A program made the translations under genes and the position numbers. A DNA stretch of 64,000 nt from an uncultured Planctomycetota bacterium (GTDB lineage Bacteria > Planctomycetota > Planctomycetia > Isosphaerales > Isosphaeraceae), in NCBI GenBank assembly GCA_963845755.1, contig CAWJTV010000012.1:138062-202061 (forward strand), read 5' to 3'. Below, piece after piece: positions 44,069 through 52,712 of the stretch. The notes below the pieces were generated by a model. That model worked only from the letters and a program-made list of their open reading frames with translations, had not been told where the DNA came from and ran no database searches. Every line of letters begins with the position of its first letter. Position 1 is the first letter of the stretch.

Positions 44069-44133
44069 ACGGGAAACTCAGTCGAGAGCGCTTGGCTTTT
44101 GCATGGCGCACGCCCTGAGTCGCTGCGAATTCA

Positions 44134-44224
44134 CCCCCCGGAACCCCCCCTTCGCAAGGGGGGGACAGGAAACGGGCTTTTCCCGATCAATATCCCCCCC
44201 TTGCGAAGGGGGGGTTCCGGGGGG
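44134..44224. repeat. C/G-run palindromic REP-like doublet
   Basis: CCCCCCTTCGCAAGGGGGG and its inverse CCCCCCTTGCGAAGGGGGG with complementary outer arms. Confidence 0.75.
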
Positions 44225-44353
44225 TTCTTCGAGAGCAGGCCTCACGTTTGGGCAACCCAACTGCGAGGCGTTCTAACGCCCCGACTCCCCGGAATCGCGC
44301 TGGCCTCGCGCCGGGCCATCTGCGATAATCTTTCCAAGTCCGATCCAGGAAAC

Positions 44354-44671
44354 ATGATGAGTCCCGAACTCATGACCACGAGAACCGGCACACCGCGACG
44401 CGAGCCGATTGGAACGGCGATGCTCCAGCAACTTGCCGACCTGGAGCCACGGAGCAGGTCCCCCGCGACCGCTCGGAAGATCCTGGAGCTGAGCTTCTCC
44501 CCAAGGCAACAAAAGCGTGCCGGCTTCCTCTCGGAGAAGGCCCAGGAGGGCTCGCTCACAGTTCCCGAGCGAGACGAGCTCGATGAGTACATCACGGTGG
44601 CCGACCTCTTGACCATCCTCCAATCCCGAGCCCGCCGGGCCCTGAAGCCCGCCAAGCGTTCGAAAGTGTAA
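44354..44671 (+). CDS. Small antitoxin-like hypothetical protein
   Basis: ARKILELSF...LSEKAQEGSLT..ERDELDEY...LQSRARRAL; its paralogue at 50470 precedes an HNH gene. Confidence 0.65.
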   Translation: MMSPELMTTRTGTPRREPIGTAMLQQLADLEPRSRSPATARKILELSFSPRQQKRAGFLSEKAQEGSLTVPERDELDEYITVADLLTILQSRARRALKPAKRSKV

Positions 44672-45420: not shown

Positions 45421-45650
45421 GAATGCCATTAAGTTAAGCGTAAAGACAGATTCTAATTGCACTTAGGGTCGATCTCCCCGGCTCCAATCAGAAATAGTTT
45501 AGATATGTTAATTTGATTCTCAGAGCGAAAACACCCTGGATCCAAGCCGCATGGAATGATCTAGATATCAACATACTTATAAAATCGCCGAAAACATGCT
45601 CGACGCAAGCCGTTTGGAGATCAGGAGTTAAACTTAACTTAATGCCATTC
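45421..45650. mobile_element. MITE (230 bp) with IS4-like ends
   Basis: IR GAATG(C/G)CATTAAGTTAAG; 11-bp direct repeat GGGACATTGCT at 45410-45420 and 45651-45661; AT-rich, no transposase. Confidence 0.88.
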
Positions 45651-45734
45651 GGGACATTGCTAATTCCCCCCGCAGGCTGGACAATTTGGGTAAACCCATG
45701 ATCTCTTCCCTCCCCCATGAGTCTCGGTGAGCCC

Positions 45735-46277
45735 ATGCCTCGAACCGCAAGAGCTTGCTCGGCCGGATACACCTACCATGTCCTCAATCGCGGCAACGCA
45801 CGTGCCGAGGTGTTCCACAAGTCCGACGACTACGACGCGTTCGTCGAGATGATGGCCGAAGCCTCCCTCCGCACCCCGATGCGCATCCTGGCCTACTGCC
45901 TCATGCCCAATCACTTCCATCTGGCGCTCTGGCCCCGCGCCGACGGCGACCTCAGCCGCGGGATGCATTGGCTGATGACCACCCCAGTGCGCCGCTACCT
46001 GCGACACTATCACTCCAGCGGCCATGTGTGGCAAGGCCGGTTCAAGGCGTTCCCGACCGAGGAAGATGAGCGAGACTGGGTCGAGGGCGTCAACATGGCG
46101 ATGACCGAGGCCGAAGTGGAGCAGGTGCGCGAATGCGTGCGCCGCGATCGGCCGTACGGCTCGGCGGCCTGGACGACAGCGACCGCCCGGAGCCTGGGGC
46201 TGGAGTATAGTCTCCGGCCCCGCGGTCGTCCGCCAGCCACGGACCCGGCCACGCCGAACGGGAAAGGTCCCTGTTGA
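45735..46277 (+). CDS. REP-associated tyrosine transposase (RAYT/Y1), probably internally deleted
   Basis: MPRTAR, YHVLNRGN, AYCLMPNHFHL (HUH), GHVWQGRFK; the YIExNP catalytic segment is absent. Confidence 0.85.
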   Translation: MPRTARACSAGYTYHVLNRGNARAEVFHKSDDYDAFVEMMAEASLRTPMRILAYCLMPNHFHLALWPRADGDLSRGMHWLMTTPVRRYLRHYHSSGHVWQGRFKAFPTEEDERDWVEGVNMAMTEAEVEQVRECVRRDRPYGSAAWTTATARSLGLEYSLRPRGRPPATDPATPNGKGPC

Positions 46278-46547
46278 AGCTCGCTGAAAAACGGGTGTGT
46301 GTCGCATGGTTTTGCCGACCTAAGGCGGATACGGATTTCCCAGACTCTGCAGTTCAACCAGATCTCGCAATCCTCGTCAAGATTTAGGGATGTCCCCTGG
46401 TATGTGGCGAAGTGAGGTACTAAAGATTCTTGACCAGCAACAACAGGGGGGCCTGGGGGGGTCAAGGATCTTTTCTACTGAACGCCCGAGCAGACTTCCA
46501 GAATGGGAGTTGGGTCTCTTCTCAACTCGATTCGGAGGTCCTGTTCC

Positions 46548-48122
46548 ATGGCTACCAAGTCCCCGTCGAAGAACCGTCGCCCGTCGCAGCCGCATGCCCT
46601 TCATAAGCCTCGGGGGGTCATTCACCCGCGCGTCCAAGCGGTCGGACCGGAGCACTTCGGCTTGGTGTGCGTCGATTGCGCCAAGGCACGCTCCCGGATG
46701 ATGTTCGCCGACTTCTACGGCCGAGTCCTGCTCGAGCCGACCACCGTCGAACACAACCGATCCGACTTCGAGACCGCCGTGACGTCGGTTCGCGCGGCCA
46801 TGGCCCGGCACGGCATCCGGGAGGTGATCGTGGTCGTCGAGCGCACCGGTCGCTATCACGGCCCGGTCCAGCGCAGCTTCCGCAAGGCGGGGTTCGAGGT
46901 CCGCATCGTTCATCCTTACACCACCAAGCAGTATCGACTCCCCGCCGACCCCGGCAACAAGACCGACGACACCGACCTCTCCGCCATCCACCGCGCCGCC
47001 GTCAACGGCTTCGGCCTGCTGGAGCCCGAACCCGACCCGGTCTATGCCCGACTCCAACTGCTGGCCAGGCACCGCCGCACCTCGGTGCAAAAGCGAGTCG
47101 TCCTCCAACAGCAGATGCTCGAGCATCTTCAATCGTTCATGCCAGGATACTCGAAGTGCGTCGGCGATCTCTTCGGTTCTCCGGCCATCCTCTGGGTGGC
47201 CAGGGACCTCGGCTCGGCCGCGGCGATCGCCCAGATCGGCCTGGCCGGCTTGAGCCAACAGGTTCGACAGGCCGGCCTCCGAGTGTATCGGTCCACCCTG
47301 GAAAAGATCGTCGCTTGGGCCCGGTCGGCACCGTCGGCCGAGGAACCGGCGTCGCTCCATCACCGCATCTTCCTGGAGCTCGACGCCGACCAGGTCGCCA
47401 AGGCTCAAGCCATCCAGGCGGTCGAGGGTGACCTGGCCGGGCTCTTGGCCGGGACGCCCTACCTGCTCCTGCTGGGCATCGTCGGGATCAACGTGGTCTC
47501 GGCCGCCGAGTTCGCCGGCGAGATGGGGCCGATCGAGCGCTACACCAAGGCCCGAGCGATTACGGGCCGCGCCGGGTTGTTCCCCTCGCGGTACCAGAGC
47601 GACCAGGTCGATCGTCGCGACGGTGCGCTGGTCCGACACGCCAATCGCGACCTGCGATCCGCCATCCTCACGATTGCAGATAACTTGATCAAATGCAATG
47701 ATCACTTCGCGGTCCTGGCCGCGGGATGGCGGCTCAGGGGCAAGGACGCCCGTAGCGTCCGTGTCCAGGTCGCCGGTCGGTTCTGCCGGATCGCCTACCA
47801 GATGGTAGCCGGTCGGATGACCTTCCAACACCCCTGCGCTCAGCAGCGGGATCCCATCCTCGATAAACTGATCAGGTTTTCTCTTGAGCATATCATTCCA
47901 CCTGATCAGCTCTCGCGAAACCTCGACGCCGCAGTGGCCCAACTCCCGCACACGGCGCATCGTGAGGAAGCGGCCGCTGTGGCGGAGGAGCTGGCTCGGG
48001 TCCCGAAATCGCGGGGAACGGGACCGCGCCAGCTAGACACGATTCTCCCCGCCATCTTGGCCAAACTGGAGGGGAACCTGGTAAGATCACCGGAGTCAGG
48101 GGAGGCTGATCCCACAGAGTGA
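46548..48122 (+). CDS. IS110 family DEDD recombinase (524 aa)
   Basis: CVDCAK, VERTGRY, NKTDDTD, GIVGIN, AGLFPSRYQS; GGAGG RBS. Confidence 0.92.
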   Translation: MATKSPSKNRRPSQPHALHKPRGVIHPRVQAVGPEHFGLVCVDCAKARSRMMFADFYGRVLLEPTTVEHNRSDFETAVTSVRAAMARHGIREVIVVVERTGRYHGPVQRSFRKAGFEVRIVHPYTTKQYRLPADPGNKTDDTDLSAIHRAAVNGFGLLEPEPDPVYARLQLLARHRRTSVQKRVVLQQQMLEHLQSFMPGYSKCVGDLFGSPAILWVARDLGSAAAIAQIGLAGLSQQVRQAGLRVYRSTLEKIVAWARSAPSAEEPASLHHRIFLELDADQVAKAQAIQAVEGDLAGLLAGTPYLLLLGIVGINVVSAAEFAGEMGPIERYTKARAITGRAGLFPSRYQSDQVDRRDGALVRHANRDLRSAILTIADNLIKCNDHFAVLAAGWRLRGKDARSVRVQVAGRFCRIAYQMVAGRMTFQHPCAQQRDPILDKLIRFSLEHIIPPDQLSRNLDAAVAQLPHTAHREEAAAVAEELARVPKSRGTGPRQLDTILPAILAKLEGNLVRSPESGEADPTE

Positions 48123-48125
48123 CCA

Positions 48126-48301
48126 TCCGGACCAGGGGCCGAACAACGTCGAATCTGTCCCCAAGGCGCAAAGCCGTGGAAAAGCGTGGCGCTCTGTCTC
48201 GGATCACCAACGTCGGATAAGGCTGTGTGGGGTCACTCCCCTGATAAACCAGTATGGCGAGACGTGATCCCTGACGAGACAGAGGTGGCCCCTGGTCGGG
48301 A
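48126..48301 (+). ncRNA. Putative bridge/seek RNA of IS110 (second copy about 50155-50330)
   Basis: 14/15-bp closing stem (48126-48140 with 48287-48301) encloses two loops whose segments match the target and donor junctions. Confidence 0.75.
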
Positions 48302-48428
48302 TTGGCCATCAAACGACATCTGTAAAACCCGCCGGTTCGGCGGGGATAGGGATCGTCCGTACATAGGTCCCAAATCGGCATCACGCCAATTCCCACATGG
48401 CTGTCTTTTCCCTTTCAAGGGATGTCCC

Positions 48429-50435
48429 CTGGTATGTGGCGAAGTGAGGTACTAAAGATTCTTGACCAGCAACAACAGGGGGGCCTGGGGGGGTCAAGGA
48501 TCTTTCTACTGAACGCCCGAGCAGACTTCCAGAATGGGAGTTGGGTCTCTTCTCAACTCGATTCGGAGGTCCTGTTCCATGGCTACCAAGTCCCCGTCGA
48601 AGAACCGTCGCCGTCGCAGCCGCATGCCCTTCATAAGCCTCGGGGGGTCATTCACCCGCGCGTCCAAGCGGTCGGACCGGAGCACTTCGGCTTGGTGGCG
48701 TCGATTGCGCCAAGGCACGCTCCAGGATGATGCTCGCCGACTTCTACGGCCGAGTCCTGCTCGAGCCGACCACCGTCGAACACAACAGATCCGACTTCGA
48801 GACCGCCGTGACGTCGCTTCGCGAGGCCATGGCCCGGCACGGCATCCAGGACGTGATCGTGGTCGTCGAGCGCACCGGTCGCTATCACGGCCCGGTCCAG
48901 CGCAGCTTCCGCAAGGCGGGCTTCGAGGTCCGCATCGTTCATCCTTACACCACCAAGCAGTATCGACTCCCCGCCGACCCCGGCAACAAGACCGACGACA
49001 CCGATCTCTCCGCCATCCACCGCGCCGCCGTCAACGGCTTCGGCCTGCTGGAGCCCGAACCCGACCCGATCTATGCCCGACTCCAACTGCTGGCCAGGCA
49101 CCGCCGCACCTCGGTGCAAAAGCGAGTCGTCCTCCAACAGCAGATGCTCGAGCATCTTCAATCGTTCATGCCAGGATACTCGAAGTGCTTCGACGATCTC
49201 TTCGATTCTCCGGCCATCCTCTGGGTGGCCAGGGACCTCGGCTCGGCCGCGGCGATCGCCCAGATCGGCCTGGCCGGCTTGAGCCAACAGGTTCGACAGG
49301 CCGGCCTCCGAGTGTATCGGTCCACCCTGGAAAAGATCGTCGCTTGGGCCCGGTCGGCACCGTCGGCCGAGGAACCGGCGTCGCTCCATCACCGCATCTT
49401 CCTGGAGCTCGACGCCGACCAGGTCGCCAAGGCTCAAGCCATCCAGGCGGTCGAGGGTGACCTGGCCGGGCTCTTGGCCGGGACGCCCTACCTGCTCCTG
49501 CTGGGCATCGTCGGGATCAACGTGGTCTCGGCCGCCGAGTTCGCCGGCGAGATGGGGCCGATCGAGCGCTACACCAAGGCCCGAGCGATCACGGGCCGCG
49601 CCGGGTTGTTCCCCTCGCGGTACCAGAGCGACCAGGTCGATCGTCGCGACGGTGCGCTGGTCCGACACGCCAATCGCGACCTGCGATCCGCCATCCTCAC
49701 GATTGCAGATAACTTGATCAAATGCAATGATCACTTCGCGGTCCTGGCCGCGGGATGGCGGCTCAGGGGCAAGGACGCCCGTAGCGTCCGTGTCCAGGTC
49801 GCCGGTCGGTTCTGCCGGATCGCCTACCAGATGGTAGCCGGTCGGATGACCTTCCAACACCCCTGCGCTCAGCAGCGGGATCCCATCCTCGATAAACTGA
49901 TCAGGTTTTCTCTTGAGCATATCATTCCACCTGATCAGCTCTCGCGAAACCTCGACGCCGCAGTGGCCCAACTCCCGCACACGGCGCATCGTGAGGAAGC
50001 GGCCGCTGTGGCGGAGGAGCTGGCTCGGGTCCCGAAATCGCGGGGAACGGGACCGCGCCAGCTAGACACGATTCTCCCCGCCATCTTGGCCAAACTGGAG
50101 GGGAACCTGGTAAGATCACCGGAGTCAGGGGAGGCTGATCCCACAGAGTGACCATCCGGACCAGGGGCCGAACAACGTCGAATCTGTCCCCAAGGCGCAA
50201 AGCCGTGGAAAAGCGTGGCGCTCTGTCTCGGATCACCAACGTCGGATAAGGCTGTGTGGGGTCACTCCCCTGATAAACCAGTATGGCGAGACGTGATCCC
50301 TGACGAGACCGAGGTGGCCCCTGGTCGGGATTGGCCATCAAACGACATCTGTAAAACCCGCCGGTTCGGCGGGGACAGGGATCGTCCGTACATAGGTCCC
50401 AAATCGGCATCACGCCAATTCCCACATGGCTGTCT
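48429..50435 (+). mobile_element. IS110 family element, copy 2 (recombinase 5' end frameshifted; ORF 48727-50151)
   Basis: Near-identical to copy 1 with the same junctions; scattered substitutions and small deletions. Confidence 0.92.
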
Positions 50436-50446
50436 TTTCCCTTTCA

Positions 50447-50470
50447 AGGGATGTCCCCTTTTCCCTTTCA
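50447..50470 (+). repeat. Empty unit of the 24-bp target repeat AGGGATGTCCCCTTTTCCCTTTCA
   Basis: Identical to the sequence rebuilt by removing either IS110 copy. Confidence 0.85.
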
Positions 50471-50624
50471 AAACGAGCCGGCTTCCTCGGAGAAGGCCCA
50501 GGCGGGCTCGCTCACAGTTCCGGAGCGAGACGAGCTCGATGAGTACATCGCGGTGGCCGACCACTTGGCCATCCTCCGATCCCAAGCCCGCCGGGCCTTG
50601 GAGCCCGCCAAGCCTTCGTCGTGA
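50470..50624 (+). pseudogene. 3' fragment paralogous to 44354-44671
   Basis: Clear nucleotide similarity to about 44511-44665. Confidence 0.75.
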
Positions 50625-50629
50625 ATCCC

Positions 50630-51043
50630 ATGCGCATCCGCACGAACCTCGTCCGGCGAGTGAGGGCGCGAGCAAGGGGACGGCGTGAATACTGTCATCT
50701 TCCCCAGGCGCCCTACAGGCTCATCTTTCCCCTCGATCACATCCTCGCTAGCCAGCAAGGCGAAAGGACGCAGAGCGATAACCTGGGGGTCGTGTGACCG
50801 CGATTCAACCGGAACAACGGACCGAACATAGCTGGATCCGGCATCCGTAAACGTGAGATTATCAGGCTCTTTCATCCGCGTCGCGATCGGTGGGTGGATC
50901 ACTTCCTGTGGCGTGGATCGCAGTTGATCGGCTTGACCCCAATCGGCCGTGCGACCATTCGCGTCCTCGCGATCAATCACCCCGATGCGATCAAGGTCCG
51001 GAGGGAGTTGATGGCCGAAAGCCTTTTCCCGCTTGATGAATAA
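50630..51043 (+). pseudogene. HNH endonuclease pseudogene
   Basis: REYC...DHI...NL..., internal TGA 50795-50797, RLFHPRRDRWVDHF, GLTPIGRATIRVL; Zn cysteines eroded. Confidence 0.8.
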
Positions 51044-51404
51044 ATCGGCTCCTCGGGGTCTCGGGCTCCTGGCGAACCCATGCCTGGCACCGCCTCGGGC
51101 AGATACACCGACTTCTGCTCCAGCAACGACCGCACTGACGTGTTTCATGACACGGACCTCTGCGTGACACGGACTTCTGCTCTGTTTATTAAGGCTCTCC
51201 TGAGAAAGTGACAGCGCAGTTGTCATGTCATGACCCTGACGTCTGCAAAGACGCCCTGTTCGCCCTGATGATCGCCGAGAGAAACTGGAAATAGGTCTGA
51301 CCCAATCGCTCCTAATGTCTCTATTCTCCTCGCGCTCCGCGAAGACGATGAAGGTACGCGTTCAATCTCCCGTCCCAAGACCTACATGGCAGCCTTTCTT
51401 TCCT

Positions 51405-52712
51405 TCATCGCTCCCCCGTTAACGGCTTAGGCAACTCTCGAAGCGCGTCGGCCACGTCCCACAGTTTGATCGTATGATCCTTACTCGCCGTCGCCAGGAG
51501 CTTGCTGTCGGGAGAGAAAGCCAGGGAACGAATGAGCTTCTCATGGCCCTTCACAACAAGGGGCCGTCCGTAAGTCGTCGTCTCGATGAATCGGAGCATC
51601 CCGTCGGCGTCGCCCGTGGCGAGCAGCTTTCCGTCGGGAGAGTAGGCCATGCTGGTCACTGTCTCCTTATTCCCCGGCAAAGTACGCCACACCTCATTCG
51701 TGACCAGGGACCAAACTTGGACGTTGCCGGCAGCGCCCGGGGCAGCCAGGAACCTGCCATCGGGTGAGAATGTCAGGGTGTCCACTGGACCCTTGTGACG
51801 CTTGAGGACGGCCCTTTGTTCCCAAGTCTTGGTATCCCATAAGACGATTGATCCTTCGTTCGTCGTGGCCAGGGTCGTGCCGTCCCGTGAGAACGCCACG
51901 TCGTCGCTGAATGGGAGACAGAAGGGGAGACTTCCGTTCCCGAGCGCTGCTCGAAACCGTTGGGAGGCGACGTTCCAGAGGAGGATTCGTCCTTCGAGGC
52001 CAGCAACGGAGATCAGCAGGGTCTTTCCGTCAGGAGAGTACTCGAGACAAAAGACGATATCCGCAGTCTTGAGGATCACCCTCCGATTTCCTGTCGTAAT
52101 GTCCCAGAGCTCGACGGTTTCATCCGGGATGTACCTTTGGTTGCCACGCTTATTAGGACGGTAAGACGAGCTCGTGGCCACAGTCTTGCCATCAGGAGAA
52201 AAGGCCAGATTTCGAATCCTCGTATTCCTCTTCGTGAAGATGTCCCGCTGCCGACCGCTGGGGATCTCCCAAAGCCTCATCGTATCATCGCCATGGCTTC
52301 CCCCGGCCGAGACCAAGAGCTTACCGTCCGGCGAAAAGGCCACACCTCCTTCGACAGCATCCGTGTGTCCGCGGAGGACAGCCCGCGGCCGTAGATATTC
52401 CGCTTGGGCCTGGAAAGACTCCGAGACGAGGGCCAGGAATCCCGTGAGCACTGCAAGTCGTCGAAGTTGGGGAAGGCCCGAGAAAGAACGTGTGGCCGGA
52501 CGTTGTGCCCTCACGTCCGGCGACAGCCCTCGTCGAGACCGTGGCGCTTCAACTCCCCGGGAAGGATTGATGATCATGATCGCCGCTCCAAAAAAACGGG
52601 CCGAGATTGCGTTAGTACCGTCGGCGTCAACAGGTGTTCCTGGCGAACTTATAGAGCCGAATAGAGCGAAATAGAGACACATCAAGAGCGGCTTACAGCG
52701 AACTGGAGGCAT
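51405..52712 (-). CDS. WD40-repeat protein with N-terminal hydrophobic segment (start uncertain)
   Basis: About seven FSPDG...WD repeats. Confidence 0.88.
   Translation of the reverse strand: MPPVRCKPLLMCLYFALFGSISSPGTPVDADGTNAISARFFGAAIMIINPSRGVEAPRSRRGLSPDVRAQRPATRSFSGLPQLRRLAVLTGFLALVSESFQAQAEYLRPRAVLRGHTDAVEGGVAFSPDGKLLVSAGGSHGDDTMRLWEIPSGRQRDIFTKRNTRIRNLAFSPDGKTVATSSSYRPNKRGNQRYIPDETVELWDITTGNRRVILKTADIVFCLEYSPDGKTLLISVAGLEGRILLWNVASQRFRAALGNGSLPFCLPFSDDVAFSRDGTTLATTNEGSIVLWDTKTWEQRAVLKRHKGPVDTLTFSPDGRFLAAPGAAGNVQVWSLVTNEVWRTLPGNKETVTSMAYSPDGKLLATGDADGMLRFIETTTYGRPLVVKGHEKLIRSLAFSPDSKLLATASKDHTIKLWDVADALRELPKPLTGER

Follow-up and report, generated by a model that had tools for sequence, protein, structure and literature searches.

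A candidate bridge RNA in the right end of an IS110-family insertion sequence with a long recombinase, from an uncultured Isosphaeraceae bacterium

The guide ("bridge") RNA mechanism of IS110-family insertion sequences has been known since 2024. As set out in the text of PMC11208160, IS110-group elements carry the bridge RNA in their left end and IS1111-group elements in their right end, and the subterminal inverted repeats of the latter are given as 7-17 bp. The text of PMC11187229 gives 330-350 amino acids (aa) for IS1111 transposases and 315-455 aa for IS110-type ones, with a conserved S(T)G motif, and describes IS1111 seekRNAs as having the complement of the top strand 5' of the match to the bottom strand, the order being reversed in the IS110-type element ISEc21. 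Here we analyse a 64,000-nucleotide (nt) stretch of DNA from an uncultured Planctomycetota bacterium of the family Isosphaeraceae (assembly GCA_963845755.1, contig CAWJTV010000012.1, positions 138,062 to 202,061 of the forward strand). This whole stretch is referred to as the window, and all coordinates below are counted from its first letter. An earlier note on the window, made from the letters alone, had flagged a region directly downstream of a long IS110-like recombinase gene.

We consider it very probable that an active insertion sequence (IS) of the IS110 family has its bridge (seek) RNA encoded in the flagged region. This reading draws on the anatomy of the element, its ends and target, the covariation of guides with flanks, the conservation of helices, a predicted protein fold like that of IS621, and metatranscriptome contigs confined to the RNA. 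Judged from its copies, the element appears to have been active recently; its mechanism would be the known one, and its lineage, which combines features of both recognised groups, appears to be an undescribed variant.

Copies, ends and target site of the element

The features of the element, all on the + strand, are as follows.
46397-46398: left core dinucleotide CT (crossover of target and donor), preceded by the left target arm ATGTCCC at 46390-46396; the flanks of four full copies and one left-end fragment all give ...(G)TCCC-CT before GGTATG
46399-48406: IS copy 1, 2008 bp including the right core CT at 48405-48406, GGTATGTGG...CCACATGGCTGT-CT
46402-46407: left subterminal inverted repeat ATGTGG, with its partner CCACAT at 48393-48398
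46548-48122: recombinase open reading frame (ORF) of 524 aa beginning MATKSPSK; 539 aa if read from an upstream ATG at 46503
47841-48119: codons of the C-terminal extension (residues about 432-524); structural alignment to 8wt6 and 9t56 stops at model residue 431-432
48399-48406: right end, left-donor arm GGCTGT (48399-48404) and right core CT, from flank comparison and copy alignment
48407-48430: 24-nt spacer between the copies, TTTCCCTTTCAAGGGATGTCCCCT, comprising the right target arm of copy 1 and the left target arm and core of copy 2
48431-50435: IS copy 2, decayed, its ORF broken near the N-terminus and its RNA region at about 50139-50341
50451-50464: unoccupied target ATGTCCC-CT-TTTCC, ATGTCCCCTTTTCC, directly after copy 2

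The element is an IS110-family element of 2.0 kb with two tandem copies in the window (46399-48406 and 48431-50435), and a DNA search matched it to eight places in its own 14.3-Mb genome. Contigs C1 and C34 each carry a further full copy, near-identical to copy 1, giving a genome total of three intact near-identical copies, one decayed copy, one left-end fragment (297 bp, C47) and three solo right-end fragments, on C29, on C18 and, at 76% identity, on C34. The boundaries of copy 1 were set where the flanks of the copies on C1, C34 and C12 diverge. By a four-copy alignment, copy 2 differs from copy 1 by three 1-nt deletions (two in the ORF) and about 17 substitutions; the substitutions fall mostly in the first 800 bp, as if that stretch were older or had been converted from a diverged copy, and two of the deletions sit in homopolymers, so that assembly error is possible there.

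All left junctions in the genome read (G)TCCC-CT followed by GGTATG, and all right junctions GGCTGT-CT followed by TTTC(C); copy 1 itself is flanked by ATGTCCC-CT-GGTATG on the left and GGCTGT-CT-TTTCC on the right. From these flanks and the empty site we deduce (AT)GTCCC-CT-TTTCC as the target and ...CCACAT-GGCTGT-CT-GGT-ATGTGG... as the joined ends of the donor. The CT core is common to both junctions, and junctions compared with the empty site display no target duplication. The target had previously been read with five Cs; it has four, because ATGTCCCC already takes in the first core base, as the flanks and the empty site make plain. The 14-mer target occurs three times in the 14.3-Mb genome against an expectation of 0.06, and with both IS copies deleted the site is a perfect threefold tandem of the 24-mer GGGATGTCCCCTTTTCCCTTTCAA, the first two units of which are occupied (46390-50487).

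The longest perfect inverted repeat between the ends, ATGTGG/CCACAT (6 bp), is set in by 3 nt at the left end and by 6 nt at the right. Across 23 distinct relatives the perfect subterminal repeat measures 3-6 bp, and by eye it reaches about 10-12 bp with a gap in some of them. From stop codon (48122) to right end (48406) there are 284 nt, compared with about 150 nt upstream of the start codon.

The RNA and the covariation of its guides

The RNA region, likewise on the + strand, comprises the following parts.
48110-48312: bridge/seek RNA, about 190 nt, ends approximate, with a closing stem (48123-48141 / 48286-48305) around two modules
48147-48191: module 1, the putative target-binding loop, on the stem CGUC 48147-50 / GGCG 48188-91
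48155-48162: left-target guide of module 1, CUGUCCCC (DNA CTGTCCCC), in the 5' loop, matching the top strand of the left flank
48165-48175: hairpin of module 1, GGC-GCAAA-GCC
48178-48184: right-target guide of module 1, GGAAAAG, in the 3' loop, reverse complement of CT+TTTCC
48192-48200 / 48276-48284: stem CTCTGTCTC / GAGACAGAG
48201-48207 / 48264-48270: stem GGATCAC / GTGATCC
48211-48259: module 2, the putative donor-binding loop, on the stem CGUC 48211-14 / GGCG 48256-59
48221-48226: left-donor guide of module 2, GGCUGU (GGCTGT), identical to the right end GGCTGT at 48399-48404
48229-48241: hairpin of module 2, GGGG-TCACT-CCCC
48246-48252: right-donor guide of module 2, AAACCAG, 6/7 complementary to CT+GGTAT at the left end
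48328-48344: third hairpin, CCCGCCG-GTT-CGGCGGG, in the right end and 3' of the RNA contigs, from the fold; relatives carry an equivalent hairpin of different sequence

RNAfold of 48123-48305 returns a closing stem around two modules, both consisting of an internal loop capped by a short hairpin. The fold has a minimum free energy of -85.8 kcal/mol, whereas 200 dinucleotide shuffles give -64.9 +/- 4.5 (z -4.67) and none of them folds as well; the longer stretch 48110-48415 folds with a z of -2.97. Both modules begin CAACGTCG (48144 and 48208).

A scan of one genome per species yielded 58 homologous loci at 44-83% identity, mostly from Planctomycetota/Isosphaeraceae bins and two Singulisphaera isolates, with a few in bins labelled Acidobacteriota, Gemmatimonadales, Opitutales and Caenibius. 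A complete RNA-like region and right end accompany 49 of the 58; the RNA is cut by a contig end or interrupted at three (L015, L040, L063), and the six loci without RNA are truncated genes or contig ends. By this count the RNA travels with the recombinase gene. In L040 (about 4270 onward) and L063 (about 4170 onward) unrelated sequence breaks the RNA inside the donor-binding module, probably another insertion.

Across 28 distinct sequences (alignment A1), RNAalifold recovers the same helices, with compensatory change in 9 of 38 pairs. For a 36-pair structure on A1, 97.5% of cells are in standard pairs, compared with 44.6-55.7% when the partners are slid by 1-3 columns, nine pairs have changes on both sides compared with 1-2 in the slid controls, and 0/500 shuffles match the observed pairing, double-change count or covariation score. 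A1 aligns poorly in the closing stem, and the sequences were therefore folded singly: 25 of the 28 homologues form a closing stem of at least 8 pairs (12-24 pairs in those) from widely different sequences. G-U pairs are frequent in the conserved helices, which places the RNA on the + strand, since they would be A-C mismatches on the other. Just upstream of the starts of the RNA-library contigs described below, at 48099-48113 in the last ORF codons, stands a small hairpin, GGGG/(U)CCC, whose G-C/G-U alternation is kept in 28 sequences; it may be part of a precursor or a mere coding constraint.

To score covariation, the four loop segments, the element ends and the flanks were pulled by pattern from each locus, and the 49 loci reduced to 28 guide classes. 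The score was the longest common run between the guide of a class and its own flanks, compared with the flanks of other classes, and class labels were permuted 20,000 times. Tests on the left flank exclude L019, L039 and L055, whose left ends were not found (diverged or truncated), and L026 and L014, at contig ends; the covariation table leaves out L015, L040 and L063, as well as L055 (module 1 off pattern) and W2 (a duplicate of the W1 flanks). The four comparisons, in which the classes are phylogenetically related, so that the permutation counts overstate independence and are not true probabilities, gave these results.
Left-target guide against left flank + CT: 21 classes, own 6.61, other 4.79, 0/20,000 permutations
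Right-target guide (reverse complement) against CT + right flank: 27 classes, own 5.04, other 4.20, 0/20,000
Left-donor guide against right end: 28 classes, own 5.57, other 3.88, 0/20,000
Right-donor guide against left end: 21 classes, own 5.48, other 5.16, 571/20,000

Four wrong-side or wrong-strand controls gave runs of 2.2-3.1 and no own-class excess. Guide/flank covariation across homologues, together with helix conservation, puts the motifs beyond chance, and the covariation of all four segments in relatives seems to amount to natural reprogramming.

Individual switches of target and donor look to us like the clearest evidence that the loops read target and ends. The guide CUGACCCC goes with a CTGACCC flank in the L009 family and L013, and L062, of an unrelated RNA lineage, made the same CUGACCCC/CTGACCC change independently. 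L017, L018 and L042 pair UUCCUCU and GUAGAGAAG with the site TTCCT-CT-TCTCT, and on the donor side UUUCAG goes with the left end CTGAAA, which replaces CTGGTA. L046, one guide base off its sisters (AUUAUCCCC), has the flank TTATCCC; L028 couples a CGUGUCU guide to a CGTGT-CT flank; L060 has UGUCGCC and GAAGCGAAAG at the site GTCGC-CT-TTCGCT; and L027 and L052 carry GUGACAAAG with CTTTGTC(A) as the following sequence. Pairs of guide and right end on the donor side include GGCUGU/GGCTGT, GGCGGU/GGCGGT and GGCAG(U/C)/GGCAGT.

Much of the earlier note holds up against these results. The motifs, hairpins and stems it named are all present at their positions when checked in the sequence, RNAfold reproduces its closing stem and two modules, and its readings of GGAAAAG as the exact reverse complement of CT-TTTCC and of AAACCAG as 6/7 complementary to CT-GGTAT were both seen. 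Its central proposal, a bridge-RNA-like guide downstream of the recombinase, is borne out by four segments that covary with target flanks or element ends in relatives, and the check it had suggested, guide-target covariation across homologues, found that covariation, with 0/20,000 permutations for three guides and 571/20,000 for the fourth.

On this basis a + strand RNA of about 190 nt (roughly 48110-48312) would fold into a long closing stem bearing two internal-loop arms. In arm 1, which would read the target, (C)UGUCCCC in the 5' loop would pair to the left of the CT core on the bottom strand, and GGAAAAG in the 3' loop would pair with CT+TTTCC on the top strand. The joined element ends (...CCACAT-GGCTGT-CT-GGT-ATGTGG...) would be read by arm 2, by means of GGCUGU and (A)ACCAG. 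In complex with the DEDD/serine recombinase of 524 aa (D43, E98, D140/D143; S351 in RYQSD), the RNA would unite target and circularised donor, and strand exchange would take place at the shared CT, so that no target duplication would be made.

The recombinase, RNA libraries and wider distribution

The recombinase matches DEDD_Tnp_IS110 (PF01548, 6.9e-20) and Transposase_20 (PF02371, 1e-10) in Pfam. Sequence search brought up just two solved relatives, the transposases of IS621 (E 1.7e-5) and ISCro4 (3.8e-4); a Clp protease subunit (E 8.8e-4), the third match in the PDB, looks unrelated. In 15/15 homologues D43, E98, D140, D141 and D143 are invariant, as is S351, where GLFPSRYQS351 aligns with the serine of IS621 ...PRRYESG. 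The residue after S351 is an invariant D (R-x-Q-S-D) in the 15-protein alignment, compared with the G of the G--P----SG motif, and this alignment is conserved over its whole length, the last 100 residues included.

An AlphaFold2 model built from the 15-sequence alignment has a mean predicted local distance difference test score (pLDDT) of 79.5 and a predicted template modelling score (pTM) of 0.67. The top ranks in Foldseek are the IS621 and ISCro4 recombinases in bridge-RNA/DNA complexes (E about 6e-11, target template modelling score about 0.7), followed by Nop5/Nop56/58-type proteins. VIA-align to IS621/ISCro4 gives Z of 22.8, 22.4 and 22.3 at a root-mean-square deviation of 4.0-4.2 A over 298-302 aligned residues, placing model residues 36-431/432 on chain residues 4-321/322 (396 residues of the model against about 318 of the chain). 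Given these ranges, the entire IS621 fold appears to be contained within residues 36-431, and residues 432-524 appear in the model as an additional, mostly helical, conserved C-terminal part of about 90 aa. Its modelled helices span 437-447, 452-465, 468-484 and 496-506, and its invariant residues include K440, L441, F444, L459, A462, P467, E474, A475, G492, L500 and P501.

Fifteen RNA-library runs contain part of 47900-48420, and four soil metatranscriptomes (X1-X4) were mapped on the whole element; X1 and X2 have the same size and the same contig and are probably one data set. Their 165-nt contig equals 48110-48274 with 0 differences, a 201-nt contig of X3 covers 48112-48312 (5 differences), and a 180-nt contig of X4 covers 48127-48306 (4 differences); X4 also yields pieces from relatives. 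These contigs over the RNA region map end to end with no loose ends. No contigs over the ORF were found in X1, X2 or X3, and X4 has short, poorly matching pieces there, although an uncovered part proves nothing. Stand-alone contigs that coincide with the predicted fold in three studies are what a stable small RNA would give, and we take them as a hint of one.

Intact homologues mostly measure 520-524 aa from an equivalent start methionine, two are longer (547 and 564 aa), and several homologue assemblies hold frameshifted copies. HMMER against 1.84 billion cluster representatives found 2128 proteins at E <= 0.001, falling to 890 at 1e-10 and to 262 at 1e-30, with full-length members of about 510-536 aa down to 31% identity. 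In 72,556 plasmids, tblastn returned 6 records at E <= 1e-5, all below 31% identity (five from actinobacteria, annotated IS110 family, and one from Alicyclobacillus), and 209 records at E <= 1, none better. Two plasmid matches inspected for an IS110 or IS1111 label were annotated just 'IS110 family transposase'.

No recombinase gene lies close to any of the three solo right ends in the source genome (L006, C29:192250-192564; L007, C18:17023-17257; L008, C34:350339-350515). That on C29 comprises an intact right end and a complete RNA, whose left-target guide, CUGACCCC, specifies a target different from that of the resident full copies.

Several observations concern the sites where these elements lie. 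A second intact target (<=1 mismatch in 14 nt) is found 10-28 nt to the right in 5 of 44 insertions and 31 nt to the left in one of the 44 (L062). In 9/44 insertions, compared with 0/42 control regions, the left target arm coincides with the 3' arm of a perfect 8-12 bp inverted repeat <=80 nt upstream; these are the left flanks of L011, L021, L022, L032, L033, L045, L046 and L048 and the C1 copy, and a T-rich right arm follows. Because the left arm is the 3' arm of an inverted repeat and the right arm is T-rich, the element seems often to land at the stem/T-tract boundary of terminator-like or repetitive extragenic palindromic (REP)-like hairpins. Empty sites in the source genome have the GGGGAC...GTCCCC+TTTT shape too. 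A 186-aa ORF at 45717-46277, ending about 120 nt before copy 1, matches Pfam Y1_Tnp (IS200-like, 1.5e-12); a REP-associated tyrosine transposase is one possibility, in keeping with a repeat-rich neighbourhood. The ATG of the empty target opens a 57-codon frame (50451-50625, MSPFPFQNEPASSEKAQAGSLTVPERDELDEY...) whose C-terminal 50 residues resemble, by eye, the end of the ORF at 44099-44671; the tandem ISs may thus stand at the 5' end of a small paralogous gene.

Alternatives and comparison with described systems

That the element is an ordinary member of the IS1111 group, with nothing distinctive in its RNA or protein, seems unlikely to us. Such a member would have its RNA downstream in a long right end, a short left end (here about 150 nt before the start codon) and subterminal inverted repeats (here 6 bp perfect, about 10-12 bp gapped by eye in some relatives), and the texts of PMC11208160 and PMC11187229 name RNA location and subterminal repeats as IS1111 hallmarks. 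However, the guide order here is the IS110 order, the reverse of the IS1111 order as PMC11187229 describes it; 524 aa with an invariant SD contrasts with the 330-350 aa and S(T)G of the descriptions in that paper; the perfect repeat of 3-6 bp in 23 distinct relatives falls under the 7-17 bp quoted in PMC11208160; and the six plasmid records at E <= 1e-5 (of 72,556 plasmids) all lie below 31% identity, five of them actinobacterial and annotated IS110 family.

Far less probable is a structured region that acts in cis as part of the right end (a DNA site bound by the recombinase, a 3' untranslated region or a terminator) or as a regulatory small RNA, with the protein picking the target and the flank matches reflecting conserved ends and targets. 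It is true that the donor-side matches lie within one element and are co-inherited, that most classes have the same target (xTGTCCC-CT-TTT), so that much of the matching is not independent, and that Ssr9, the downstream small RNA of ISPpu9, is described in PMC12288879 as dispensable for transposition. Yet flanks are not inherited with the element, and they follow the loops through at least five left-arm and several right-arm targets, in the correct strand sense only; compensatory and G-U changes keep the helices, a constraint at the level of RNA; the short RNA-library contigs cover just the RNA region; and the architecture mirrors the two-loop RNA of the IS621/ISCro4 complexes that the protein model matched. 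It is equally hard to credit that the element is a decayed relic whose RNA is a fossil without present function in the source genome. Copy 2 is frameshifted, three solo right-end fragments and one left-end fragment lie elsewhere in the genome, and several homologues are frameshifted in other assemblies, but three contigs each have a copy with an intact 524-aa ORF, and over 2 kb these copies are near-identical, which indicates recent movement, and one RNA-library contig is 100% identical over 165 nt.

A bridge RNA of an active element thus remains the reading we prefer, and a number of points weigh against it. In the window itself the left-target guide has one mismatch (C for A) to the ATGTCCC flank, just (G)TCCC is common to all four local left flanks, and the right-donor guide, which is ATACCAG in many relatives, fits its own left end at all positions but one. 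The register of the core in the left-target guide varies by 1-2 bases between classes (W type, L017/L028 type, L010/L012 against L009), a single fixed register was looked for across the classes and not found, and two of the four L009-family insertions stand in a different one. Left flanks match poorly in L016, L027 and L053, the right-flank match of L058 is limited to CTT, and the donor guide of L060, GGCUAU, has one mismatch to GGCTGT. The relatedness of the guide classes, which tempers the permutation counts, belongs here as well. The NCBIfam model NF033542 (IS110 family RNA-guided transposase) matches residues 40-421 with 118.9 bits, under its cut-off of 140, and the recombinase would accordingly look like a divergent relative that this model does not name. 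RNA-library contigs cannot reveal transcription, strand, ends or level, and DNA carry-over is possible. Rfam 15 gave no match at E <= 1 over 45500-51500, and a scan of 46300-48520 for sigma-70 promoters and terminators brought up a single terminator-like site, on the minus strand within the ORF, and no promoter. Binding of the RNA by the protein, the circular intermediate and the chemistry would follow by analogy with IS621, ISEc11 and ISEc21.

The group to which the element belongs is less simply stated. The earlier note had called it IS1111-like, which fits the location of the RNA and the short subterminal repeat and fails for the guide order, which is IS110-type, and for the length of the protein, which lies outside the IS1111 range given in PMC11187229. 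Two IS110-type traits are present, the guide order (bottom-strand match 5', top-strand complement 3') and the loop order of target before donor, and the IS110-group trait of an upstream guide RNA in the left end is absent, the RNA being in the right end. Conversely, the long non-coding region with a guide RNA downstream of the gene is an IS1111 trait that the element has, whereas 330-350 aa, the S(T)G motif and the top-strand-complement-first order are IS1111 traits that it lacks. The element would thus mix the traits of both groups, with RNA location and, in a shorter form, perhaps subterminal repeat like IS1111, guide order like IS110, and a length outside both ranges. The same note's proposal of a long (524 aa) divergent subfamily with a C-terminal extension agrees with the match to IS621/ISCro4 over residues 36-431 and about 90 further conserved residues.

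As to whether this subfamily is already catalogued, which the note had left undecided, Supplementary Table 1 of PMC11208160 holds at least one homologue, anonymous (row 712), that shares the RYQSD motif, and a description of the subfamily was not found. Neighbours of row 712 in that table carry no usable group label, planctomycete genus or IS names sought in the supplements of PMC11208160 and PMC11187229 came down to anonymous 'Planctomycetes' rows, and no title or abstract found in the bridge-RNA/seekRNA literature describes the long branch. Given the anonymous homologue in its phylogeny table, the branch was already sampled in PMC11208160, as far as the table goes, with no description of it found.

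It is a genuine possibility, though one we put forward tentatively and rate somewhat below probable, that the element represents a bridge-recombinase lineage of its own, hitherto undescribed and found mainly in soil Planctomycetota bins (262 cluster representatives at E <= 1e-30), with a right-end RNA, the IS110 guide order in a three-way junction, an invariant SD, a helical C-terminal domain of about 90 aa that may hold an extra RNA helix, and natural targets at terminator-like hairpin stem/T-tract boundaries and short tandem repeats. If so, 'RNA upstream = IS110, RNA downstream = IS1111' would not be a clean two-way split. Bridge/seek-RNA recombinases are under development as programmable DNA-insertion tools, and natural lineages show which parts of RNA and protein can vary. 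The element is otherwise of an expected kind, and it offers a fully decoded case in which retargeting has happened naturally many times (at least five left-arm and several right-arm targets), with a protein about 60% longer than that of IS621 (524 vs 326-328 aa), with an altered serine motif and an extra conserved domain. Because of this length, motif and domain, and of an RNA layout that mixes both groups, it would serve well for studying how the RNA changed ends of the element in evolution and what the added protein domain does.

The closest described systems by structure are IS621 and ISCro4 (PDB 8wt6/8wt9 and 9t56; text of PMC11208160). Like them, the present element combines a DEDD RuvC-like domain, a coiled coil and a serine Tnp domain with an RNA in which a target-binding loop precedes a donor-binding loop. 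Both loops carry the top-strand sequence of the left arm in their 5' segment and the complement of the right arm in their 3' segment, and a CT core without target duplication is shared. In IS621/ISCro4, however, the RNA lies before the gene in the left end, whereas here it lies after the gene in the right end, with both arms inside one long closing stem. Their proteins have 326-341 aa and the motif SG, in contrast to 524 aa and SD in the present protein, which is just 15-18% identical in sequence and has about 35 extra N-terminal residues, insertions within 36-431 and a conserved C-terminal extension of about 90 aa.

With the IS1111-group elements described in PMC11187229 (ISEc11, ISKpn4, ISPa11, ISPst6) the present one shares a non-coding region and guide RNA downstream of the gene, subterminal inverted repeats, site-specific insertion and natural retargeting through guide changes. 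Set beside the text of that paper, the guide order is opposite and the protein about 180 aa longer than 330-350 aa, and set beside the text of PMC11208160, the perfect repeat of <=6 bp contrasts with 7-17 bp. ISEc21, an IS110-family element described in PMC11187229, has the same order of bottom-strand match before top-strand complement, yet its RNA is upstream of the gene and its transposase has 358 aa, as against downstream and 524 aa here. Finally, ISPpu9 of Pseudomonas putida, as described in PMC12288879, is an IS110-family element with palindromic repeats as targets and a downstream RNA gene, and its solo ssr9 modules are comparable to the solo right-end fragments in the present genome; but Ssr9 is given there as a dispensable regulatory or selfish RNA, with the bridge RNA of ISPpu9 upstream, whereas the downstream RNA of the present element itself carries the guides.

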